From a virus, in IMG/VR virus record IMGVR_UViG_3300045988_177228, positions 1 through 64,000 of that record: DNA of 64,000 nt; one strand, given 5' to 3'. Shown here piece after piece: positions 6,730-54,888 of the stretch (its first letter is position 1; the number at the start of each line of letters is the position of its first letter). A program made the position numbers and the translations under genes. The notes beneath the pieces were generated by a model. It was not told the DNA's origin, made no database searches, and saw nothing but the letters and a program-made list of their open reading frames with translations.

Positions 6730-7887
6730 ATGACCAATCCGTTCAAACCAACCGCCGGACGTATCCCGCCGATACTCGTCGGACGAGAAGAAATCATCGA
6801 AGACTTCGACTATGCGCTGAAAGACGGTGTAGGAAGCCCCGGACGGCTGATGTTCCTCACCGGAGCCAGAGGCGTAGGAAAAACAGTCATGCTGGACACG
6901 TTAGGAACACACGCGCAGAAGCAAGGCTGGAAAGTCTATAACGAAAGCGCCGATAGAGGTTTCACCCAAAGACTGGTGGACGCACTTACCGGCAAGGACA
7001 CGACTCGCATATTCGCCTACGACATGCCTAGCGTCGGATTGAAAGGTGATGTAGGGAATCTGGAACTGAGTTTGGGGAGAATCGAACTCGAACACAATGA
7101 GGAACGTTCCTTGACGCTACGTCAAGCGGTCGGCAAACGTTTGGACAAGATAAATGAAAGCAAGCAGGGCATTCTCATCACGTTGGATGAGGTGCAGTCC
7201 GGTTCCATGGACGAAATCAGAGCACTGTCCACCGCAGTGCAGCATCTCATCCGGGAAGGACGGAACATCGCGTTCGTTTTCGCCGGACTGCCGTCCGCAG
7301 TGAACGACGTGCTGTCCGACAATGCCATCACTTTCCTGCAACGGGCGGAACGATACCATTTGGGGTCTGTCCCCACGGAAAAGGTATTGAAGGCGTTCGA
7401 GGAATCCTTCAGCGGCGAGAAGAAAGCCGGAATGGAAACGCTGATACGGTTGACCAACGCCACTCACGGTTATCCGTTCATGATTCAGCTGGTGGGCTAT
7501 TGGGCTTGGCGGATGTCCGAAACCAACGGTCATGTGAATCAAGTGACCGAGGAGGACGCGGTCAAGGGTATCGAAAAAGCCCAAGCCAAACTAGGGGATA
7601 TGGTTCACGCCCCAGCATTGCATGGCTTGCCATCCCATGCGGTGAACTATCTACTTGCCATGTCGGTGGATGATACGGTGTCGAATACAGGTGAAATCGC
7701 CCGTCGGTTGAACCGTTCGCCACAGTTCGCCAACGTGTATAGAACCAAGCTGATTGAGAACGATTTGATTGAGCCGGTCGGTTACGGTGAGGTCGCTTTC
7801 AAAATGCCGTATTTGCGGGATTACTTGCGTGAGCATGGGGCTTATTTGCAGATGCGGGAGAATATCAGCGAACGCTCGGAGAACTAG
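6730..7887 (+). CDS. AAA+ P-loop ATPase with C-terminal winged-helix (ATPase_2/DUF234-like)
   Basis: Walker A LTGARGVGKT, Walker B ILITLDEVQ, C-terminal wHTH-like region. AT-rich promoter tataattattataaaatcaaggaaacagacATG. Confidence 0.8.
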   Translation: MTNPFKPTAGRIPPILVGREEIIEDFDYALKDGVGSPGRLMFLTGARGVGKTVMLDTLGTHAQKQGWKVYNESADRGFTQRLVDALTGKDTTRIFAYDMPSVGLKGDVGNLELSLGRIELEHNEERSLTLRQAVGKRLDKINESKQGILITLDEVQSGSMDEIRALSTAVQHLIREGRNIAFVFAGLPSAVNDVLSDNAITFLQRAERYHLGSVPTEKVLKAFEESFSGEKKAGMETLIRLTNATHGYPFMIQLVGYWAWRMSETNGHVNQVTEEDAVKGIEKAQAKLGDMVHAPALHGLPSHAVNYLLAMSVDDTVSNTGEIARRLNRSPQFANVYRTKLIENDLIEPVGYGEVAFKMPYLRDYLREHGAYLQMRENISERSEN

Positions 7888-9854: not shown

Positions 9855-11009
9855 TCACGGGTGAAAAGCCAGCTTCCGCATTTCACAATGCCTCCGATAC
9901 CACGCTTTCTCCCGAGCGCACAGTCCACGACGGTGAGTTAGACCCGACAGTGTGCTCTCATGGCTCGTCCAAGAATCCTGAACTGTCCGCAATCCCACAT
10001 GCACGCCATCATATGAGCGGATAAGGTTACGCGCATGCCGTCGGCTTGCACGCAACGCCTTATGGTGCATGCGGATAAGAATACTGCCGTCATCCTGTAC
10101 ACTGTATACGCGTTTCAGGAATGTGAGTTGACCGGTATGACAGTCCACTATGCGGGTCTTATGCTTGTTCAACCGCAATCCCAATTGATTGACACGCCAC
10201 TCATAACCGGCCAGCACACGTTCAGCCTGTTCACGATTCTTGCAGAAACAGTAGGCATCGTCCATGTACCGTCCGTAGAATCCTTGCGACATGCACCAGT
10301 GGTCAACCTTGTTCAAATACCAGATAGCCATGGTTTGGCTCGTCTGATTACCTAACCCTAAGTGAGGTTCGTCCAATACGAAGATTCTCAATACGGTTAG
10401 AATCCGTTCCACATCCTGCTTCTCCCGTCCGGTGCGGGCGATGCTCCGGTACAGGGTGGAAATCATATCGAACGCGCGTTGGGAGCTGATACTGCCGAAA
10501 TAGTTGGAACAGTCGAATATGACAGCATACGGATGCTCCCATTTACCCAAAGCCCGCTTATAGTGTAGTTCAAACCGTTTTCGGGCGAACGATGTTCCAC
10601 GTTTCGGAAGGCTCGCCGCATTATCATATATCAGTTGGCTTTCCACGATGGGGACGAGACTGTTGTCGCATAAGGCGCGTTGCACCACCCGGTCTCGGAA
10701 GGATACCGCGCTGATGTGGCGGAGTTTGCCTCGTTCGGAAATGTCGAATCGGATTGGCGCTCTCTTCTTGTATGTGCCGTCCTCTAATTCTTGTGCGAGT
10801 TTCCAACAGTTGACGGCACGCCTATTGTCGAAGTTCAACGCTGTGTTTTTCCACGTGACGCCGCGTTTGCATTTTCTTGCGGCTTGGTAGAGCGCGTCGA
10901 ATCCGAATGTTTGTTGGAAGTCGATGTAACGGTGGAGCTTCCTGTACTTATCATCCGAGCGTTGTTGCAGTCTGCGTTGGCGTCTTCTACGTCTTTGACT
11001 CGCATTCAC
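9855..11009 (-). CDS. diversity-generating retroelement reverse transcriptase
   Basis: RT motifs including YMDD. DGR-specific LGLGNQTSQ in place of QGxxxSP. Likely GTG start at 11009 with gaaggaag RBS (longest ORF reaches 11084). Immediately 3' of TR. Confidence 0.85.
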   Translation of the reverse strand: MNASQRRRRRQRRLQQRSDDKYRKLHRYIDFQQTFGFDALYQAARKCKRGVTWKNTALNFDNRRAVNCWKLAQELEDGTYKKRAPIRFDISERGKLRHISAVSFRDRVVQRALCDNSLVPIVESQLIYDNAASLPKRGTSFARKRFELHYKRALGKWEHPYAVIFDCSNYFGSISSQRAFDMISTLYRSIARTGREKQDVERILTVLRIFVLDEPHLGLGNQTSQTMAIWYLNKVDHWCMSQGFYGRYMDDAYCFCKNREQAERVLAGYEWRVNQLGLRLNKHKTRIVDCHTGQLTFLKRVYSVQDDGSILIRMHHKALRASRRHARNLIRSYDGVHVGLRTVQDSWTSHESTLSGLTHRRGLCAREKAWYRRHCEMRKLAFHP

Positions 11010-11278
11010 GATTTTAATGCTTCCTTCACTAGGGAAAGAGAAAAGAATGGTTGAGGGCAGGTCGTCGGCAACAACCCAAGACATGCAATGATGTTGGACG
11101 CCCAGCTTAAGGGGCGAGTATCCGTCGTTTCCGACAGTCTTAATATCTCCCTCAACCTATTTCACACGCAACCCATTTTTCGAGGGGCCGCGCATTCGAC
11201 CATATCCCCTTCCCCTTCGGGAGGCTTTCACCCATTGGGCTACTGGCCTATCTGATGTTAGTTTTTGGTAAGAGGAAT

Positions 11279-30489: not shown

Positions 30490-31254
30490 ATGAACGAAGG
30501 AACCTATGGGCTGGAGACCCTGAAAGCCGACTATCATACGATACTCGGCTACGATATCGGCTATCTCACCGCGGAATCCTATCCGCTGTTCGCACCCTAT
30601 CGTGCGAAAACCAAGAACAGTTTCTCCGGTAGGGTACCGCGACTGTTGAGCGTAATCATCACCACTCTCGTCAACACGCCAAGCCGCGAATGGGATGCGG
30701 AAACCCGCGCGCTCACCATCGGTGACGACTTCTTCTTCCTCGCCAACAAATGCGGGTTGAACAGTGGAGGAGACGGACGCACTACCGTCCGGAACCAGCT
30801 TCTCATGCTTTCGTCAATCCAGTTCACCGGAGCGGACGGAGTCAAAGTCACGCCGGTCGAACACACCGAAATCACCGCCGACAGTCTCACTATCGAGCAT
30901 CGGAAAATCACGTTCACGGAACCGTTCGTAAAAATGATGACAAGGAACGTCCGGCAGATGCCGTTGAAGTGTCTGTACCCCAACGCGGGTAGCGCCATAG
31001 CGATAGACCTGCTCGCATTGGCGGCATTGTACTGTCCGAACGACCATAGGCTCATCATCGAACGGGCAGACCTTCCATCACTGCTTCCAGCAAGCAGGCA
31101 AAGCCTCTCCAAGCAGAATCTTCTAAATAGATTCAAGGAGTTGAACGACAGTCAGAACGAGTGGACGTATCGTATAACGAAATACAGCGTGACCATCAGC
31201 CCGTTCGGAGTGTACTCGTCCGAAGACGCTTTGAGATTACGTCGCAGACAATAG
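30490..31254 (+). CDS. hypothetical protein (254 aa)
   Basis: taaggagacacaATG RBS. No recognisable motif. Confidence 0.65.
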   Translation: MNEGTYGLETLKADYHTILGYDIGYLTAESYPLFAPYRAKTKNSFSGRVPRLLSVIITTLVNTPSREWDAETRALTIGDDFFFLANKCGLNSGGDGRTTVRNQLLMLSSIQFTGADGVKVTPVEHTEITADSLTIEHRKITFTEPFVKMMTRNVRQMPLKCLYPNAGSAIAIDLLALAALYCPNDHRLIIERADLPSLLPASRQSLSKQNLLNRFKELNDSQNEWTYRITKYSVTISPFGVYSSEDALRLRRRQ

Positions 31255-32043: not shown

Positions 32044-32149
32044 ATCCAGCGAACACTCCGGTCGTACAGGCTGTTAACAGTCGGAACGAGGTGTTCTGTA
32101 TTTTCAATTCACGAGTGTAGCGCCCGACGGCATCCCTAAACGGGGAAAA

Positions 32150-32930
32150 CGGGGAAAAACAATTCCCCGCGCCACCCGCGCCGGTAGTTCCAACAGAAAA
32201 GCGGAACCAAAAAGAGTCCCCAACAAATATGAAAAAAGGAACAGCACCCGACCATTATCAGAAAAACCATGAAAACCATCCAGTCCACGCCGGTAGGTCA
32301 ACATGAATAGCAGACTCAAAAAAAGAGAAAAACCAAAAATCAAAAAGACTAAAAGAAAGGAAGCACTACCCACCAAAAATCAGAAAAAGAAACCAAACAC
32401 CATCACACCAAAAAAAGAAGAACCAAGAAAATCAGAAAGAAAAGAAAAACCAAAAGGAAGAAAAGGAGAATATAAGAGAAGCAATCTTAATCAAATAGAA
32501 GCAACAGAAGAACAGGACAATAAAAGAAGAAACACCTACCCCTAAATCGGGAATACAACGTATAGAAGCAACAGAAGCAACGCAACCATCCACCAAAAGA
32601 ACAACATATCAACCCATATGACATACAGGACAGAAGAACAACAGCACCCAACACCCCAAGAAACAAGAAAAGCCAAGCAACAGCACCACAAGGCAACAGG
32701 CCAAGCAACAGCACCAGCACAAACAACAACCAACAGCCACTACAACAACAAAAAAACAACAAAAAGGTCAATAGTCTCACTAACAAGGTCAACGGCAATC
32801 AGAACAAGGTAACATCAATACAGGAACAGCCAATGCAACGAAAAAAGCAACAGCAAAACCAACAAAAAACTAAATATCAAAAAACTATAAATGCCAGAAC
32901 TCGGACAAAACCGTAAACGTTCCGATGAGA
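32150..32930. repeat. ~780-bp low-complexity A/C-rich, G-depleted region (plus strand) between divergent genes
   Basis: Runs of aaaaag/aacaac/caacag. Extreme strand asymmetry unlike the rest of the window. Track ORFs inside are K-rich or Q/T-rich artefacts. Confidence 0.6.
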
Positions 32931-32940
32931 ACAACGGAAC

Positions 32941-34155
32941 ATGACCCATCAGGAGGCGGTCTTATTGGAAAAACGAACGATTTCCCTGATAATCGGCTCC
33001 GGAGGGCTTCTCACAACCATCAAAAAGGCCCTTACGAGAGCCGGAAACATGCGTTGGCAGGTGCCCGCCGCAGACAATATTCAAGCACAGGCCGACTATC
33101 TGGTAAGACATCCGGTGCCCTCCGGGTTCAAAGGAATCATCTTCACCGACAGGGCTGGAAACTGGCTTCCGATAGCCAACGCCGGATACATGGTCTACTG
33201 GTGCAACACCGGTCAGATACCGGTCGGAGCCATGGGCATGAGCGAACAGATGTTACGCATGAGCGTGGCTGATTTTGTACGGACTTATTGGGGAATCCAG
33301 CTTGCGGACAAGCGTCTCGTAGTTGATATCCTCCAAAACAAAGTGAAGGAGACTGCGGTTCTCCTACCCATCACATCCAACACCGGAGGAGTGGGGAAGA
33401 CCACGTCCAGCCGACAGTTGGCAGACCGTGCGTCGCAAGCCGGATTGCGTGTTCTACTCATCGACGGGAACATTCGGCAGTCCAGCCAACGTAGTTTTTT
33501 CGACCCGAGACAGGACAAGCCATTGCATACGATAGCCGACTGGCGACCGGGCATGCAGGTGCAGGTCGGGGCCAATCGAGGACGTGACCTTGGGGTTCCA
33601 TACGACATCTGTTTCGCACCTCCAGCAGGCGTCGGAGTGGACTGGCAGATATACCGTCAGTACATCCAAGCGGCACGCCGACTGTGGGATTTCGTCGTGC
33701 TCGACCTTGACCGAATCAGCGCGGACGATTTGGATGATAGGGAGAATATCGCCAACGGTTTACTGCTTCCATACATTCAATCGGGAGACCCTTGTCTGGT
33801 TATCGTCAAGGCTGGAAGGCAGACGCAGATTGACGCGTTGAATCTGCTGACGGCATTGGCGGAACATCATCTTCCGAAGGAACTCATCGGCATCAAGGAC
33901 ACCGTTCCGGTCGGATTGCAAGGTTACAGACGACTCGACTATACGAGATACGGAACGTTTCTCGGGACCGAATATCAGACGGTCGAGGCAAGCAACCATA
34001 TCGCCAACGGTGATGTCAGATGGGATGACCCCGGTCTTGCTTTTGCTAGGGAGAACATTCTTAACTGGGCTTTGCCCGACCGTGGTTTCAATCCGGAAAG
34101 ATTCAATCCGAACGCTAAGAACAGTGAAGGAAAGAAAGGTCGTGGGCGTAAGTGA
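32941..34155 (+). CDS. ParA/MinD-like P-loop ATPase with N-terminal extension (CpaE/TadZ-like)
   Basis: Deviant Walker A ITSNTGGVGKTTSS, LLIDGN Walker A'-like, FVVLDLD Walker B. Confidence 0.7.
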   Translation: MTHQEAVLLEKRTISLIIGSGGLLTTIKKALTRAGNMRWQVPAADNIQAQADYLVRHPVPSGFKGIIFTDRAGNWLPIANAGYMVYWCNTGQIPVGAMGMSEQMLRMSVADFVRTYWGIQLADKRLVVDILQNKVKETAVLLPITSNTGGVGKTTSSRQLADRASQAGLRVLLIDGNIRQSSQRSFFDPRQDKPLHTIADWRPGMQVQVGANRGRDLGVPYDICFAPPAGVGVDWQIYRQYIQAARRLWDFVVLDLDRISADDLDDRENIANGLLLPYIQSGDPCLVIVKAGRQTQIDALNLLTALAEHHLPKELIGIKDTVPVGLQGYRRLDYTRYGTFLGTEYQTVEASNHIANGDVRWDDPGLAFARENILNWALPDRGFNPERFNPNAKNSEGKKGRGRK

Positions 34156-43959: not shown

Positions 43960-44196
43960 TTTTTGTTCGGCGGTAAAAACAAAAGAAGGCCGTATCCGTT
44001 TCATCGCGGACGCGGCTTTCTGTTTTTCTGTTCCGCCTGTAAACTTGTACGCCGTTCAACTGTTTTACTGGAATGTTTCTCCGAACGGTTTTCTGGTTCG
44101 GCGTGCCGACTTTTCGCCGTTGTTATCATCGAAACAAAAAGACATACCCCCACCATGATTCCGTCCACACCGGAAGCAGAAAAAGGAAACCAGAAC

Positions 44197-44859
44197 ATGA
44201 GAGTCAAAAACCATACGGTCATCATCACCGTCGCAATCATCAAAGGCGGTTCAGGAAAAACAACCACATCAATGGCATTGGCCGAACTATTGCACAAACG
44301 CGGGGAACAAGTCACAGTCTTGGACTCCGACAACACGGGCGGCGCGACCATGTGGGAAATGTACGTCGAACAGGAAAACCGCAGACGCAGACAGGACAAT
44401 CCGGACGCGGAACCATACACGCTCGGCTTCCCCGTCGTGCAAACCAACGAAGCCGTATTGAACAATCCGGAACTCATCCGCGAAAAATATTCAGGCTGGG
44501 TCATCATCGACACCCCACCGTCCGACGCGGGAGTGGTGCAGGCGGCGATAAACGCGGGCGACGTGGTGATAATCCCATGCCAGCCATCCGTATCCGATTT
44601 GACCCACGCGGGACGCACATACGCGGCGGCACGCAACGGCATCGTCCTGTTGACACGCGTGAAGCCGAGAACGAAACTCGCCCGGAACAGCATCAGCGAA
44701 CTGGATGAGGAAGGCATCGCACGGTTCGAAACCGTCATCACGGAACGTGAAGCCGTCAAGAACATGTACGGCACGACGGAAATCGACAACAAGGAGTATT
44801 CCAGCGTCGTGCAGGAACTCATCGACTATCTGTCTGAAATCAATCTGGTGGAAGAATAA
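44197..44859 (+). CDS. parA: ParA-family plasmid partition ATPase
   Basis: Deviant Walker A KGGSGKTT, VLDSD, IIDTPP. Real start inside track ORF 43963..44859. Confidence 0.85.
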   Translation: MRVKNHTVIITVAIIKGGSGKTTTSMALAELLHKRGEQVTVLDSDNTGGATMWEMYVEQENRRRRQDNPDAEPYTLGFPVVQTNEAVLNNPELIREKYSGWVIIDTPPSDAGVVQAAINAGDVVIIPCQPSVSDLTHAGRTYAAARNGIVLLTRVKPRTKLARNSISELDEEGIARFETVITEREAVKNMYGTTEIDNKEYSSVVQELIDYLSEINLVEE

Positions 44860-44889: not shown

Positions 44890-45345
44890 ATGGTCAAGAA
44901 CATCAAACGCAACGCTTTCGCAACAGGAATGCAGGACAAGCGTGACATGCGCCCATTGGAATCACCGGAAAACATTAGCGAACCGAACACGGAGCAGGAA
45001 CCGACACAGGCCATTCCTGAAACGCGGGAACCGTCAGACCAGTCAGTCCAAACGTCCGCCGACATGCATGCCCAAACGCTCACGGAGGAAGAAGCCGACC
45101 GTCGGGCACGGCTCATCACCGACATAACCCATCCTGAAACACCGGCACCATCCGAAACGCATCAGCCGCCGAAAGAGAAAAGAATCGGCAGCAACGTCAC
45201 CGTCGAAAACTGGCGGGCATGGAAGATGAGAAGCATCGAATACGGGACGAAGCAGGCTGTATTGTTGAATGCCGCGATGGACTACTGCTTCCAGCAGGGG
45301 CACTTCGACCAGACGCTCATCGACAAGTACGAGCAGAAGGATTAG
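44890..45345 (+). CDS. small partition protein (ParG/ParB-like, RHH-type C-terminus)
   Basis: Immediately follows parA. Acidic linker. C-terminal SNVTVENWRAWKMRSIEYGTKQAVLLNAAMDY RHH-like. Confidence 0.5.
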   Translation: MVKNIKRNAFATGMQDKRDMRPLESPENISEPNTEQEPTQAIPETREPSDQSVQTSADMHAQTLTEEEADRRARLITDITHPETPAPSETHQPPKEKRIGSNVTVENWRAWKMRSIEYGTKQAVLLNAAMDYCFQQGHFDQTLIDKYEQKD

Positions 45346-45453
45346 GCTCCGGTATACTAATATTCGGATGAACAAAAAGATTTCATCGAAGTCTTCCAGA
45401 TGGGGCGACGCTCATATCAGAGCGTACGCCCCATTGGTTTTTCTAAAACACAG

Positions 45454-46323
45454 TCAGGATACGAACGGGTTCATTGGCTCGTTATCGTCTGCCACGCCCG
45501 CGTCCGTGTCGGCATCATCGTTAGCCGACTGGATGGAAGGGAGACTGGGGCGGACTATGACGCCGGTTTCCGTGATTTCGACTTTCAGCTCCGGCCATGC
45601 GAGCTGAATCTTCTCCAACGCTCTCTTGAACTTGCGTTTGAATTCACGTATCGGATACCCGTCATACTTGAACTGCATCAACAGAGCTTCCCATGTTACG
45701 CCGGTTTCACGTCGGGCACCGTTCGCGCGGAACGCGAGCCATTGGTAGATATCCAAAGCGAGGGCGTCACTGCGAAGCTGACGGACGATGTACGGGTTGA
45801 GTGGCACGCAGTTCTCGGTCAGCAGCGCCCACATCTGTGGGGAGAATTCTATGAACGACTTCTTGTTTTCGTCGGTCACGTAGTTGAGCGCCACGGTGTT
45901 GGCGACGAAGAACGAGTGGGCTATGAATCCGTCTGCTGACCAGTTTTTGAGGATGATGGAAGTGGTGGCTAGATTCTTAACCATCTGCATCACATTATCC
46001 TTGCTGGACCCCGAATAATGGATTCCGGCATTCTTGCAAAACGAGTTATACGTGTCGTCCAAGTAGACGGTGTGACGCTCCGCGTCCACGCAGTCGCTTC
46101 CATTCTTGATGAGCGAGCGGATGTGGATGAGGAACATTCTGGGGGCCGCACCGTAAGCCCATTCGCCATTAGATGCCGAAACTGTGATTGACGAGCGTCC
46201 GTTGGTTTTCGTCACGCTGGGTGTAGTTGGTTTTGTCTGGGGGAGGAAGCTCAGCTTCGACATCACGGACGGCGTATAGCGGTATGAGTTGTTGTTGTCT
46301 GCGGGGACGATATCATGGTTCAA
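45454..46323 (-). CDS. plasmid replication initiator protein (iteron-binding Rep, winged-helix type)
   Basis: ORF directly downstream of iterons and AT-rich stretch. DIYQWLAFRANG...VTWEALLMQF resembles Rep_3-type initiators. Confidence 0.65.
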   Translation of the reverse strand: MNHDIVPADNNNSYRYTPSVMSKLSFLPQTKPTTPSVTKTNGRSSITVSASNGEWAYGAAPRMFLIHIRSLIKNGSDCVDAERHTVYLDDTYNSFCKNAGIHYSGSSKDNVMQMVKNLATTSIILKNWSADGFIAHSFFVANTVALNYVTDENKKSFIEFSPQMWALLTENCVPLNPYIVRQLRSDALALDIYQWLAFRANGARRETGVTWEALLMQFKYDGYPIREFKRKFKRALEKIQLAWPELKVEITETGVIVRPSLPSIQSANDDADTDAGVADDNEPMNPFVS

Positions 46324-46476
46324 GTGACCATAGCTCCTTTATGGTTGCCAACGCCCCGGCTGTTGACCCAGCGCGGGGTTTTCTTTTTCTTCGATTCTAA
46401 CCGGTGCTTCTGACCTTCCCGCTGTTGTATTCAACCTTTCGGGCGTGCGTGAGAAAGTGACACACAGAACATGAAA

Positions 46477-46565
46477 AAGTTGGCACTTTCGACACGGAAA
46501 GTTGGCACTTTCGACACGGAAAGTTGGCACTTTCGACACGGAAAGTTGGCACTTTCGACACGCTT
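46477..46565. repeat. iterons: 4 tandem copies of a 22-bp direct repeat (aaagttggcactttcgacacgg)
   Basis: Perfect head-to-tail repeats at 46477, 46499, 46521 and 46543, plus partial ctttcgac. Confidence 0.85.
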
Positions 46566-46599
46566 TCGACCCGAAACGCCTACTCCCATAAGGGATTCC

Positions 46600-46800
46600 G
46601 ACACCTGCAAAAGGTATACAAAAGGTTACAAAATATATTAATAACCCTTATATTCCCTTCTTTTTAAAAAAAACAGGTTTTTTCAAAAAGAAGCAAAAAT
46701 CAAAAATCAGAATAAAACCATTTTTCGGATTCCATGTTTGGTCAGGTCTAAACCCGCTCACAGGGTATCCTCAATGCTTTTAGAAAAAATCAAGTCAACG
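46600..46800. other. AT-rich stretch next to iterons (candidate DNA-unwinding element of oriV)
   Basis: ttaataacccttatattcccttctttttaaaaaaaacaggttttttcaaaaag etc., far more AT-rich than the window. Confidence 0.5.
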
Positions 46801-46991: not shown

Positions 46992-48272
46992 GTGTTCGGA
47001 AGCAAGAAAGACAAGAACGGCAAACAGCCGATGGGTCAGCAGAAGGCGAAGCAGAACCCGAACAATGAGACCGACCTGTTCGCTGACGAAAAAGAACGCA
47101 AGGACGAGATAGAACTCACCGCGTGGAAGAAGGCGTTGAAGAACACCCAGAAGTGGAAGGTTCTCATCATCCTGTTCATCTGCACCGGTCTGGTCGCTCC
47201 GATGGTTTCCGTCCGCGCAATCAACACGTTGAACGAAATGGGTTCCTACCTGACGGAGAAGTACAAGGAAATCAGCGGCGACAAGCCCGGCAAGCAGGTC
47301 GCATTGCAAGCCGTGTACAGTTGGCTGGATGATGACAAGGGCGCTTTCCAATACGGGTATGCGAACCTGTGGTGGAATGGTGCCACCGAGGTCAGCACAT
47401 CCACTTCGGACGATTCCAACGGTTCTATCACCCAGTATTGGAGCCATCAGATGTCCCTCACCGATAAGTCGGATGGAAGCACGAGGGATATCACCCAGCT
47501 TGTCGCCGTCACCGACGGAGTGGCTACTGCGGTGGGGACGCCGACCGTGCTTCCAAAGACCGTCACTTCGAACAGCAATACGGACACGTACCGTCCCGAC
47601 GATTACATTCAGCTTGACCAGAACACGAGCCTGACGAACGTGGTCAGCGCTTGGTCTAAAGCGTACATCGGCAAAGACTCCAACGCTTTGACGGTTCTTG
47701 TCGGAGACCCGAACAGCGACCACATGTATCAACCCGCAAGCTTGGGTTCTTATCTGAACTCGTCCCTCGACTGGCTTGTGCAATGCACCAAGGACGGCAA
47801 GACCGTTGACAAGCAGAACAAGTCCGACAATCCCGAATGGGCGGCGGCGAGCGTCAGCATCTCGTTCAAACCCTACGAGAAGAAGGTTGATGCAAGCACG
47901 GCCAACGACCCGAACGCGGACACTGGTTCAACGAGCGACGTGGAGACGAGCGTCACCGTCCTCATCCATAATCCGACCCGTGGTAGCGCGAAAATCGTTG
48001 ACTGGGGCGCCGAAGGCAGTCTGACCACGTTGAAGGCGTTCAGCAATGCCATTGACCGTTCGCTGATTGGCTCTTCCAACAGTGATGACGATGATGATTC
48101 TTCCGATTCCAGTTCATCGGATTCCGATAGCGGTTCCGGTGATGACGGTTCCGACAATGACGATTCCGACTCCTCCGATTCGGATTCGTCAGACAACAAC
48201 AGCAGTAGTTCATCCCAGAATTCCGATGACGGTTCCGTAACCGGCGACCCCAATGAGGGTCCGAACGACTAA
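46992..48272 (+). CDS. membrane-anchored protein with Asp/Ser-rich acidic C-terminal tail (426 aa)
   Basis: N-terminal TM VLIILFICTGLVAPMVSV, extracytoplasmic body, C-terminal DDDDDSSDSSSSDSDSG low complexity. Confidence 0.65.
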   Translation: MFGSKKDKNGKQPMGQQKAKQNPNNETDLFADEKERKDEIELTAWKKALKNTQKWKVLIILFICTGLVAPMVSVRAINTLNEMGSYLTEKYKEISGDKPGKQVALQAVYSWLDDDKGAFQYGYANLWWNGATEVSTSTSDDSNGSITQYWSHQMSLTDKSDGSTRDITQLVAVTDGVATAVGTPTVLPKTVTSNSNTDTYRPDDYIQLDQNTSLTNVVSAWSKAYIGKDSNALTVLVGDPNSDHMYQPASLGSYLNSSLDWLVQCTKDGKTVDKQNKSDNPEWAAASVSISFKPYEKKVDASTANDPNADTGSTSDVETSVTVLIHNPTRGSAKIVDWGAEGSLTTLKAFSNAIDRSLIGSSNSDDDDDSSDSSSSDSDSGSGDDGSDNDDSDSSDSDSSDNNSSSSSQNSDDGSVTGDPNEGPND

Positions 48273-48469: not shown

Positions 48470-49780
48470 GACGATAGTTCACACCTACTCGTGCAGGTTG
48501 TACGGGCTGCGCCGTTACAGGAAGGCGTTCGACCTTATCGGCAAGGACGGCACATGATGGCCGTCATGCGCCGCGCGTTCAAAACCCGATTGAACGTGAA
48601 CAACAAGACAGGGAATATGCTCGCACGCTGGTGCGGCATCTCCAGACTGGCATACAACATCTGCCTGATGAAATGGAACATGGACTATCGGGACGGCGTG
48701 GCGAAACACAACTACTACAGCATCAAGAAATGGTTCAACAGCGTCAAGTACGAACGGTTCCCGTTCATCAAAGAATGCTCGAAATGGGTGCCGGAAGCGG
48801 CAATCAAAGACCTGCAAAACGGTTTTACGAACCTGTTTCAACATCGTGGCAACCATCCGAAACTACACCGCAAAGGACATAACGACTCGTTCCGTATCGA
48901 CGGCAGTGTTGTCAAAATCGACGGTCGGACAGTACGGCTGCCCAAAAAACTCACCATAAGAATGATGGAAAGGATACCCCATGAACGGAGGATAACGAAA
49001 ATCAACAACATCACAGTTAGCCATAAGGCGGGCCTATGGTTCATCAGCGTCAACTACGAAACCGATATGAGCGTGTGCGAAAACCAAGCCACGGGAGTTG
49101 TCGGAATCGACTTGGGGGTGAAGACCTTGGCGGTCTGCTCGGACGGTCTGACGGTGAAGAACCCGCACGTCCTACGCAAGCGCGAACGACGCAAGAAACA
49201 CTTGCAACGCATCGTCGCACGCAGGAGGAAAGGCTCCAAGAACCGTCGCAAGGCCGTAGCGCGTCTCGCACGCTACGAATACCATACGGCTTGCAAACGT
49301 CGTGACTGGCTACACAAGGCGACACGGACGATAGCGGACGAGAACGCCGTATGCTTCATGGAAGATTTGAACGTGAACGGCATGCTCAAAAACCACCGTC
49401 TCGCCAAATCAATAAGCGACGGCAGCTTCAACGAATTCAAACGCCAACTCTCATACAAGACGCAGGTGCGGAACATCGACCGCTGGTATCCCAGCAGTCA
49501 AATCTGCTCCCGCTGCGGCATGAGGAAACCCATGCCGTTACCCGAACGCACTTACGAGTGCGAACGATGCGGACTCACTCTCGACAGGGATTTGAACGCC
49601 GCGTTGAACATTCTTCAAGTAGGGATTGCGAACTATCCCGAACTTATGCCTGTGGAGGGTGACAACCACCTGAACGCCATCGGCGCGACCGATGTTGCGA
49701 CGGCACCCCGTGAAACAGGAATCGACCATCAAAAACTGCATGAGCAGCTATGAATAAGAATCGAAAGGCAGGTTTCCTAT
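48470..49780 (+). mobile_element. solo IS200/IS605-family IS1341-type element (tnpB only)
   Basis: tnpB with no adjacent tnpA. Ends approximate. Confidence 0.55.
48554..49753 (+). CDS. tnpB: TnpB (OrfB) RNA-guided nuclease
   Basis: N-terminal wedge/helical region, RuvC-like motifs, C-terminal zinc finger CSRCG...CERCG. ATG at 48554 (MMAVMRR). Confidence 0.85.
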   Translation: MMAVMRRAFKTRLNVNNKTGNMLARWCGISRLAYNICLMKWNMDYRDGVAKHNYYSIKKWFNSVKYERFPFIKECSKWVPEAAIKDLQNGFTNLFQHRGNHPKLHRKGHNDSFRIDGSVVKIDGRTVRLPKKLTIRMMERIPHERRITKINNITVSHKAGLWFISVNYETDMSVCENQATGVVGIDLGVKTLAVCSDGLTVKNPHVLRKRERRKKHLQRIVARRRKGSKNRRKAVARLARYEYHTACKRRDWLHKATRTIADENAVCFMEDLNVNGMLKNHRLAKSISDGSFNEFKRQLSYKTQVRNIDRWYPSSQICSRCGMRKPMPLPERTYECERCGLTLDRDLNAALNILQVGIANYPELMPVEGDNHLNAIGATDVATAPRETGIDHQKLHEQL

Positions 49781-53717: not shown

Positions 53718-54670
53718 AGCCTTGGTTCCAAGACGACACGCTGACGCTCTATCTGGGCGACGCATCGTCCGTGCTTCCCGATTTGCCCGACGGAAGCGTC
53801 GATTGCATCGTCACCAGTCCGCCGTACTACGGGTTGCGTCAATACACGGATTCCGAACTGGAAATCGGACGCGAACCCACACCCGGCGGCTATGTGGAAG
53901 ACCTCAGCAAAGTATTCCGCGAATGCAGACGAATCCTAGCCGATGACGGCACGCTCTGGCTGAACTTGGGTGACACGTACTCCACGCCGAACCTGTGGGA
54001 CGGCGGCGACGAGTCGGAGACCAGCATCGGATTGCACGGACATGCGCAGAAACCGAACGGCAGAAAACGTCCAGACCGTCCGGCGAAGAACCTGCTCGGC
54101 ATCCCGTGGAGAGTGGCGTTCGCATTGCAGGATGACGGTTGGATATTGCGCTCGGATATCATTTGGGGAAAAACCAATCCCATGCCGGAAAGCGTGAAAG
54201 ACCGTCCAAGCAAAAGCTACGAGCATATTTTTCTATTCTCCAAAACCGAAAAATACTATTACGACTACCAGTCCGTAAGACAACGGCAGTCGGAGAAAAC
54301 CATTGAGGATTTAGCTCACCGGCATACGCTCGGCAACAAAAGCGCATATGGTGGCGTCCGCGAGGATTTGGGAAGAGACCGTAGGGAATACGTGGCATCG
54401 GACGGCAGACGAAACCTACGCGACGTGTGGATGTTGCCGACCCGCCCGTATGCGGGAGCGCATTTTGCGGCTTTTCCGTTGGATATTCCCCTCACATGCA
54501 TTCAGGCCGGTTGCAAGCCGGGCGGCGTGACGCTCGACCCGTTCAACGGTTCCGGTACCACCGGGTTGGCGGCTGCGATGCTGGGGTGTAGGTATGTCGG
54601 TGTTGATTTAAACGAACAATATTTGGAATTGAGTCTGCGAGACCGTCTGAATCAGCCTGCGTTCGTATAG
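53714..54670 (+). CDS. DNA methyltransferase, beta-class amino-MTase (N4-C or N6-A)
   Basis: Motif IV VTSPPYYGL before motif I LDPFNGSGTT. TTG overlapping previous stop. No adjacent restriction endonuclease recognised. Confidence 0.85.
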   Translation: MKPWFQDDTLTLYLGDASSVLPDLPDGSVDCIVTSPPYYGLRQYTDSELEIGREPTPGGYVEDLSKVFRECRRILADDGTLWLNLGDTYSTPNLWDGGDESETSIGLHGHAQKPNGRKRPDRPAKNLLGIPWRVAFALQDDGWILRSDIIWGKTNPMPESVKDRPSKSYEHIFLFSKTEKYYYDYQSVRQRQSEKTIEDLAHRHTLGNKSAYGGVREDLGRDRREYVASDGRRNLRDVWMLPTRPYAGAHFAAFPLDIPLTCIQAGCKPGGVTLDPFNGSGTTGLAAAMLGCRYVGVDLNEQYLELSLRDRLNQPAFV

Positions 54671-54684
54671 GAGATTGGAAAAAA

Positions 54685-54888
54685 ATGCTGTCGTTATTAT
54701 CACAACAGAATGTGCTTATCGCATTGGCTGTGGGAGCTATCATATTGGCGCTCATGTTCCTTGTGTCCGCATTGGAAGACTTGTTGGGTAGTGATACGAG
54801 ACTAGGGGAGTTGTGCGGTCGCAGGAACCTGAGATGGGCTGTGGTCATTCTGACCATCGTGGCGGTTCTCACGGTAGTGGTCATCTGA
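54685..54888 (+). CDS. small membrane protein (67 aa)
   Basis: gagattggaaaaaaATG. Two TM helices. Confidence 0.45.
   Translation: MLSLLSQQNVLIALAVGAIILALMFLVSALEDLLGSDTRLGELCGRRNLRWAVVILTIVAVLTVVVI

Follow-up and report, generated by a model that had tools for sequence, protein, structure and literature searches.

A conserved RepA-type Rep-iteron module next to the partition locus of a pMP7017-related Bifidobacterium megaplasmid: a possible auxiliary replicon

Features of the Rep-iteron locus

The window analyzed herein is the whole 64,000-nt stretch of the IMG/VR virus record IMGVR_UViG_3300045988_177228 (positions 1 to 64,000). Near 46 kb of the window, a minus-strand gene for a replication initiator-family protein (rep; protein Rep) is preceded by tandem direct repeats (iterons) and an AT-rich block, and it stands next to a partition (par) operon. 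A first-pass annotation, made from the sequence alone, had read these features as the theta-type replicon of a plasmid. The features on the rep side of the locus are listed by window position and strand.

45454..46323, minus strand: rep, RepA-type initiator-family protein (open reading frame (ORF), PF04796, AlphaFold (AF2) fold, identity to pMP7017 RepA, ratio of nonsynonymous to synonymous substitution (dN/dS))
46311..46392, plus strand: candidate ~70-nt antisense RNA (countertranscript RNA, ctRNA) over the rep start, Shine-Dalgarno sequence and leader (folding, covariation, alignment)
46394..46399, minus strand: putative rep promoter -10 (TAGAAT), inferred from the pMP7017 alignment, leader ~70 nt
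46476..46563, no strand: four 22-bp iterons (Tandem Repeats Finder, pattern search, homologous arrays in relatives)
46563..46573, no strand: half-iteron CGGGTCGAAAG (sequence, alignment of relatives)
46579..46594, no strand: 16-nt motif CCTACTCCCATAAGGG (read by eye; 15/16 match near pMP7017 repA)
46605..46725, no strand: AT-rich block, candidate unwinding element (AT content, three TTTTGTAWACC repeats, conservation)

The iteron array was returned by Tandem Repeats Finder with period 22, 4.0 copies and 100% matches, and the unit is AAAGTTGGCACTTTCGACACGG. In the rep-ward reading the unit is CGTGTCGAAAGTGCCAACTTTC, and the spacing equals two helical turns. A pattern search of the 64 kb found exactly 4 copies, with one mismatch in copy 4 (...ACGC), where 0 matches are expected in shuffled sequence. 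The array is the sole strong tandem repeat within the window and lies 153 nt upstream of rep. The GC content falls to 31.5% over 46600-46799, compared with 50-57% elsewhere. The early observation of four 22-bp repeats followed by an AT-rich stretch (46600-46800) is therefore confirmed. The repeat coordinates given at that time (46477-46565) were shifted by 1-2 nt, and the true AT-rich core is narrower, with 78-80% AT in 50-nt windows at ~46625-46724.

The half-iteron adjoins the array on its AT-rich side and is shared by most aligned relatives, and the 16-nt motif lies between the iterons and the AT block. Inside the AT block, three ~11-bp repeats of the form TTTTGTAWACC occupy 46608-46633. 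This three-repeat core is identical in the window and in two relatives (L024 and L028) and nearly identical in the others, and its conservation holds even in the most distant relatives, where synonymous sites are saturated. The block is a candidate DNA unwinding element. It also carries a promoter-like site on the plus strand (46625-46654), and it may hold the promoter of the divergent 426-aa gene, which begins beyond the block at 46992.

Rep belongs to the RepA_C family and is modeled as a twin winged-helix initiator

The rep ORF encodes 289 aa from a TTG start codon. A Rep-like gene on the minus strand had been proposed, with a family assignment by hidden Markov model as its check; this check was run, and Rep scored 40.2 bits against Pfam PF04796 (RepA_C; cut-off 26). 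An AF2 model with 15 relatives as input (predicted local distance difference test (pLDDT) 68) had domains 2-3 of Vibrio RctB among its best PDB matches (E = 1.6e-7). The others were the RepE dimer 2z9o, an MSBI1.176 WH1 replication domain, and 'isoreticular co-crystal' protein-DNA scaffold entries, which we take to be built on RepE54. As modeled, Rep is a twin winged-helix fold of the iteron-initiator type, which agrees with the family assignment. A profile search of Rep against PDB sequences returned nothing meaningful, with no sequence-level match to solved structures. The dN/dS of Rep is 0.08-0.24, a range indicating that the gene is under purifying selection.

The start codon is TTG in the window lineage and ATG at the same position in all examined relatives and in pMP7017; the TTG start may reduce Rep translation. 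In all 15 aligned relatives, the C-terminus of Rep (45454-45520) is a variable acidic tail with an invariant NPF after it, at or close to the end. Neither RepA nor RepB of pMP7017 has this NPF tail. A replication protein of the host or of the plasmid may dock on this tail. The acidic stretch loosely recalls the acidic C-terminal tips of single-stranded DNA-binding (SSB) proteins, and the SSB of pMP7017 ends with ...GTDPEF.

Another ORF of the window (30490-31254, 254 aa) was considered as a Rep, as it has a weak GxxPRL-type stretch resembling the N-terminal half of Rep (pairwise BLASTP E = 6e-5). It was ruled out: no RepA_C match was found even at E = 10, and the ORF is a homologue of an unrelated, uncharacterized pMP7017 gene (54039-54818). 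A scan of the GTDB species-representative genomes for Rep gave 20 pattern matches, of which 0 were confirmed.

The window is DNA of a Bifidobacterium megaplasmid lineage related to pMP7017

Among plasmid-encoded proteins, Rep is best matched by the product of a gene annotated RepA on pMP7017, a 190-kb conjugative megaplasmid of B. breve, with 34% identity (tblastn). Hundreds of distant PF04796 RepA genes follow. Metagenome contigs with the exact Rep reach 111 kb. Relatives of Rep with 83-88% identity are listed as B. pseudocatenulatum or B. adolescentis RepA, and their contigs are 194-262 kb long. In a protein-level comparison, positions 22.7-52 kb of the window are colinear, in inverted order, with pMP7017 from 60 to 35 kb, a span of ~30 kb. 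The genes common to both include dnaB, a CobQ/ParA-like gene, genes for an 886-aa ATPase and for 1335-aa and 117-aa proteins, parA, the ParA partner gene, the 426-aa gene and a GmrSD/DUF1524 gene. The window therefore belongs to a megaplasmid lineage that is related to pMP7017 yet separate from it, and the earlier statement that it is plasmid DNA is borne out. No near-identical DNA was found in PLSDB, and the lineage is absent from PLSDB and from the literature searched.

The rep gene and its repeats are the only non-syntenic piece in this comparison. In pMP7017, the partner gene abuts a 399-aa gene directly, and repA lies at 96 kb.

The module is conserved among relatives while the iteron sequence varies

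In every relative (Rep 59-88% identical), the gene order is the GmrSD gene, a ~420-aa gene, a ~650-bp spacer, rep, and the convergent partner and parA. Every relative also carries a tandem array of period exactly 22, with 2-6 copies, ~150-250 nt upstream of rep. Within one plasmid the array is mostly near-perfect, and between Rep clades its sequence differs (examples are CGTGTCGAAAGTGCCAACTTTC, CGTGTCAGAAGTTCCAACTTTC, TGGTTCCACTTCTTCCCACTTT and CCGTTCCACTTTCACCAACTTT). In the unit, the half CCMACTTT is conserved and the remaining half is specific to the clade; co-evolution of one of the two Rep DNA-binding domains with its half-site would be expected to give this pattern. The position and the period are kept while the sequence changes from clade to clade, and this supports the view that the repeats behave as cognate iterons.

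For the window lineage, four copies are present in two independent assemblies. Six Logan contigs (L004-L009) end exactly 182 nt upstream of rep, inside the array, and two ENA scaffolds (L002 and L003) have N-gaps at the array. The array breaks short-read assemblies, so copy numbers in metagenome data are unreliable.

The rep leader is overlapped by a predicted antisense RNA

The mapped start site of pMP7017 repA is 71 nt before its start codon (PMC8313286). For rep of the window, no convincing placement of a sigma-70-type promoter was found, and no inverted half-iteron operator was identified at the rep promoter. A 3-codon leader ORF before rep was considered and dropped, as the conserved (A/G)TGGTC(A/G)C is the spacer between the Shine-Dalgarno sequence and ATG in relatives.

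On the opposite strand of the leader, a compact RNA element is predicted. It begins with the -10 candidate TATCAT (46311-46316, plus strand). The TATNAT hexamer corresponds to two NAT codons plus A; the encoded residues vary among N, H, Y and D, and the xATxATA pattern is retained in 6 of 7 lineages, pMP7017 among them. Hairpin 1 (7 bp; 46324-46330 pairs with 46342-46348) has a loop with CTCCTT, which is complementary to the Shine-Dalgarno sequence. Hairpin 2 is GC-rich (9-10 bp; 46354-46362 pairs with 46369-46378) and is followed by a T-tract (46379-46392). The fold of the window sequence has z = -3.3, and a terminator-like match is present.

The structure was compared across 7 lineages including pMP7017. 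In this alignment 96.6% of the cells are paired, compensatory changes occur in 6 pairs, and 0 of 500 shuffles were as good. When the strands were compared, 113 of 117 cells could pair on the plus strand versus 100 of 117 on the rep-sense strand, an excess that arises because 14 cells are G·U. These data indicate that the element has the form of a ~70-nt countertranscript predicted to limit rep translation. An Rfam search of the element gave only sub-threshold noise, and the pMP7017 papers searched make no mention of such an RNA. The antisense-RNA-like element is conserved and previously unreported. Control of rep translation by ctRNA is known in Gram-positive plasmids of the pSK41 type and the pMV158/pIP501 type. 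As in those systems, the element predicted here is a short countertranscript of the rep leader and Shine-Dalgarno sequence, and it combines a hairpin with a GC-rich terminator and a U-tail; it differs in having no sequence relationship to them and in being a prediction from sequence.

Taken together, the sequence comparisons indicate that the module is clearly not a relic: selection has kept the protein, the iteron array, the AT block and the predicted antisense RNA through deep divergence.

Rep is the counterpart of pMP7017 RepA and not of RepB

Two PF04796 proteins are encoded by pMP7017. Rep of the window is 33% identical to RepA (152 bits) and 25% identical to RepB (77 bits), and by these scores it is the counterpart of RepA, not RepB. 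The assignment matters because the autonomous-replication test that the first-pass annotation had named has already failed for the closest characterized homologue. A 1829-bp fragment of pMP7017 with repA and its repeats did not replicate in plasmid-free B. breve, and repA could be disrupted and is dispensable (PMC8313286). RepA forms multimers and binds cooperatively, with a Hill coefficient of about 6, to a probe containing the repA promoter and the repeats; the repA promoter is repressed in trans by the plasmid (PMC8313286). The replicon proper consists of RepB and 17 downstream 20-mers (PMC8313286). RepA is more conserved than RepB, and Dineen et al. 2021 suggested that the dispensable RepA is a possible dysfunctional remnant (PMC8313286). 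In pMP7017, a simple cumulative GC skew is lowest at 119,121, which is repB and not repA; this skew misses the published terminus at 37.4 kb, and a terminus argument is therefore not used here.

RepB-type genes were also found among the relatives of the window. When pMP7017 RepB was used as the query, proteins with 55-57% identity were found on the same contig records as the RepA-type relatives. On ERZ15609937 NODE_43 (L034; 202,302 bp), the RepA-type gene is at 45.5-46.4 kb and the RepB-type gene at 149.6-150.6 kb. On ERR8477316_59 (126,676 bp), they are at 27.6 kb and 124.5 kb, respectively. The longest contig of a B. adolescentis RepB-type protein is 262,271 bp, and the longest contig of P0005, a RepA-type protein with 86% identity, has the same length. 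Co-residence was judged by record name for the 202,302- and 126,676-bp contigs and by equal length for the 262,271-bp contig. The RepB-type loci of the relatives have at least 7 irregular ~20-mers (GTGGCYTTTCRRGCACC) downstream and secE/secG as neighbors, as at the validated pMP7017 origin. The consensus of the pMP7017 RepB iterons had no matches beyond chance in the window or at these RepB-type loci. The RepA-type and RepB-type genes are ~103 kb apart on the 202-kb contig, roughly opposite if the contig is a full circle, versus 22 kb in pMP7017.

Within the window, tblastn with pMP7017 RepA and RepB matched the present locus only, revealing no second Rep and no RepB-type gene. On the 111-kb scaffold beyond the window, up to 73.8 kb, no RepA_C gene was found. 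With RepB-type genes bracketing the question on the contigs of relatives, the plasmid of the window very probably also carries a RepB-type origin ~100 kb away.

Comparison with known replicons

The repA module of pMP7017 shares with the window a PF04796 protein and direct repeats upstream of the gene, with a GTGTCRRAA core and a spacing of about two helical turns. Its repeats are eight copies of GGTGTCARAATTCTA in two groups of four at 20-21-bp spacing, and the GTGTCRRAA core is common to these and to CGTGTCGAAAGTG... of the window. Both have an AT-rich region with three TTGTA-type repeats of ~11-12 bp, and the region upstream of pMP7017 repA includes GTGTCARAATTCTA repeats at 20-21-bp spacing. 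A palindrome upstream of pMP7017 repA contains a match to the 16-nt motif of the window at 15 of 16 positions, in the opposite orientation relative to rep. The leaders are also alike, with ~70 nt, an alignable A-run, a hairpin and a Shine-Dalgarno sequence, and with two hairpins and TATNAT on the antisense strand.

The two modules also differ. In the window, a single array of 4 perfect 22-bp repeats lies upstream of the putative -10 by at least ~76 nt, whereas pMP7017 has 4+4 repeats of 15 bp overlapping the repA promoter. The pMP7017 RepA has an extra C-terminal segment of ~80 aa that Rep (289 aa) lacks. The module of the window lies between the par operon and the 426-aa gene, whereas that of pMP7017 is ~55 kb away from this place, beside FtsK-like genes.

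The validated minimal replicon of pMP7017, RepB/oriV, resembles the window in Pfam family, in being of the iteron type, and in having essential iterons with 22-bp spacing. The differences are the low identity of RepB to Rep given above, the 17 irregular 20-mers placed downstream of repB, and the position beside tRNA/tmRNA genes and secE/secG; the counterpart of this locus in the lineage lies outside the window.

F RepE, R6K pi, pPS10 RepA and RctB of Vibrio chromosome 2 share with the window a twin winged-helix initiator, direct iterons of 17-22 bp, an AT-rich region and rep. Four 22-bp iterons are also present in pPS10. In contrast to these classical iteron plasmids and RctB, Rep of the window has no detectable sequence similarity to solved structures, and its locus has no DnaA box, no identified inverted half-iteron operator at the promoter and an additional predicted antisense RNA. 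Other PF04796 RepA plasmids (from many Proteobacteria, Ralstonia megaplasmids and Corynebacterium plasmids) encode proteins annotated as replication protein RepA with 20-28% identity over 70-89% of the protein, and they are very distant.

An auxiliary replicon is the tentatively favored reading

We tentatively favor, at slightly below an even chance, the reading that the locus is the RepA-type Rep-iteron module of a ~200-260-kb Bifidobacterium megaplasmid related to pMP7017, working as an auxiliary, tightly regulated iteron replicon and not as the primary origin. Iterons, a conserved AT block and a twofold control of the Rep level belong to a replicon and not to a mere repressor; therefore, the auxiliary origin is favored. 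In the proposed mechanism, Rep would bind the four iterons and the half-site on one helix face. The Rep-iteron complex would repress rep and, when conditions allow, would melt the AT block to load a helicase. The supply of Rep would also be limited by the ~70-nt countertranscript pairing with the leader and the Shine-Dalgarno sequence. Vegetative replication would start mainly from the RepB-type origin ~100 kb away, and ParA and its partner would segregate the plasmid independently of the iterons. The auxiliary origin may need plasmid factors in trans, and the plasmid has its own DnaB.

Several points weigh against this interpretation. The sole tested homologue, pMP7017 repA at 33% identity, was negative for origin activity. 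No DnaA box (TTWTNCACA) is present in the origin region, and for the E. coli, actinobacterial and 'Bifidobacterium' consensus boxes no site in the region has fewer than 2 mismatches. The GC skew of the window has no extremum or informative switch at 46.5 kb. The conservation of the AT block could reflect the promoter of the divergent 426-aa gene. The RepB-type gene is known from relatives only, as the window ends first and the contigs of its own lineage stop at ~111-123 kb. The predicted antisense RNA is drawn from 7 sequences. In this lineage rep has moved next to par; such an arrangement is typical of basic replicons and would be in keeping with a larger role than in pMP7017.

The strongest competing reading, which we consider somewhat unlikely, is that the module is a Rep-derived DNA-binding system that no longer initiates replication. 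It would serve in autoregulation only, in incompatibility or exclusion, in the handcuffing of sister plasmids, or as a fork barrier or organizing site opposite the RepB origin. The behavior of pMP7017 RepA, which is cooperative, multimeric, dispensable and non-replicating yet more conserved than RepB (PMC8313286), agrees with this, as do the ~103-kb separation of the two genes on the 202-kb contig, roughly opposite if it is a full circle, and the lack of an origin-like GC-skew signal. However, a conserved AT block with phased 11-bp repeats and a control of Rep by both operator and antisense RNA exceed the needs of a simple repressor. The pMP7017 test was run without plasmid factors in trans, and each of the alternative functions is conjectural.

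A related and broader proposal, which we regard as doubtful, is that the RepA-type protein, the phased iterons and the antisense RNA form a conserved Rep-derived system with another job in two-Rep bifidobacterial megaplasmids, and no vegetative origin. This job may be, for example, that of an origin reserved for the arrival in a new host that follows conjugation, or that of a Rep-iteron complex by which replication from the RepB origin is coupled or limited. The module of this lineage is located beside the partition locus and, if the 202-kb contig is a full circle, roughly opposite the RepB-type origin. As the module is maintained by selection, its role becomes a concrete, testable question, in contrast to the remnant idea for pMP7017 RepA.

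The view of the first-pass annotation, that the module is a self-sufficient primary theta-type replicon beside a partition system, now appears improbable. The anatomy of an iteron origin is complete (array, RepA_C, AT block and fold), rep adjoins parAB in every lineage member, the module is strongly conserved, and PF04796 proteins are annotated RepA on many plasmids, including ones of 2.9 kb and 7.2 kb. The claim that these features define the theta replicon of the plasmid is nevertheless not supported. Rep is of the RepA-type paralogue, for which the pMP7017 fragment failed to replicate and the gene was dispensable (PMC8313286); RepB-type replicons with origin-like repeat fields co-reside on the contigs of relatives; and neither a skew extremum nor a DnaA box marks the locus.

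These results correct an easy annotation error, since a locus with "Rep + iterons + AT-rich + par" in these Bifidobacterium megaplasmids, which are common in the human gut, need not be the replicon. For Bifidobacterium vectors, the iteron- and antisense-controlled module is a candidate compatible second replicon, if it can be activated.

The partition locus beside rep

The features of the partition side are as follows.

44081..44130, no strand: conserved block upstream of parA with short CGCCGTT / TTCGGCG-type repeats (alignment; motifs by eye)
44197..44859, plus strand: parA, small deviant-Walker-A ParA/MinD-type ATPase (KGGSGKTT) (ORF, family profiles)
44890..45345, plus strand: ParA partner, 151 aa, candidate centromere-binding protein (position, alignment of relatives)
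45402..45444, no strand: GC-rich hairpin and T-run between the partner gene and rep (fold -29.3 kcal/mol, z = -5.6)

ParA is 52% identical to pMP7017 ParA. It matches AAA_31, CbiA and MipZ above their cut-offs, and it matches NCBIfam ParA_partition with 7.7e-31 and 107 bits, under the equivalog cut-off of 180. The 151-aa partner is 31% identical to the product of the gene downstream of pMP7017 parA. A variable P/Q-rich linker joins its 27-aa N-terminal tail to a helical C-terminal domain of ~55 aa; tail and domain are both conserved. No match to the partner was found in Pfam, in PDB sequences or by Foldseek, and no similarity to ParG or to ribbon-helix-helix (RHH) proteins was detectable. The monomer model has three helices after an unstructured RIGSNVTV segment, and this segment could form a strand in a partner dimer.

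A convergent parA with a small RHH-type, ParG-like partner had been described here. The first part stands, as parA with KGGSGKTT and the 151-aa gene adjoin rep and both converge on it. The RHH/ParG label was a positional guess, and the fold searches were negative or uninformative. The layout does recall the type Ib ParF-ParG systems, where a small ParA that lacks an N-terminal DNA-binding domain precedes a small protein with a compact C-terminal domain and an N-tail that is flexible and conserved; the window differs from these in a ParA below the ParA_partition cut-off and in a partner with no ParG/RHH similarity and a three-helix monomer model.

The hairpin at 45402-45444 is likely the terminator of the par operon. 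Relatives with 59-88% Rep identity keep the block at 44081-44130, a candidate operator or centromere of the par system.

The 22-bp repeats lie near the par operon, and type I centromeres typically contain tandem repeats, but the reading of these repeats as the centromere of the ParA/partner system and not as Rep sites is very improbable: in pMP7017 a comparable array is found near repA and not near the homologous par operon, pMP7017 RepA binds a probe with the repA promoter and repeats, a separate conserved repeat block lies upstream of parA at the usual site, and the arrays are always on the side of rep away from par.

Other genes of the window

A replicative DnaB helicase gene is borne by the plasmid at 22767-24107 and is 54% identical to pMP7017 dnaB; its presence is relevant to the question of whether the helicase recruited by either Rep is that of the plasmid or that of the host. 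Upstream of the 404-aa CobQ/ParA-like gene (32941-34155), an ~800-bp non-coding region at 32100-32940 is unusual in being strongly A/purine-rich and contains numerous short, imperfect repeats.

Between the 426-aa gene and the GmrSD-like gene, an IS605-family TnpB gene (OrfB_IS605 and Cas12f1-like TNB) is located at 48491-49753. It is missing at this place in L003, which has an identical Rep, so the insertion is recent. A reverse-transcriptase (RVT_1) gene at 9855-11084 lies near a STAND/AAA_16 ATPase gene at 6730-7887, and the two genes together may be a defense module.

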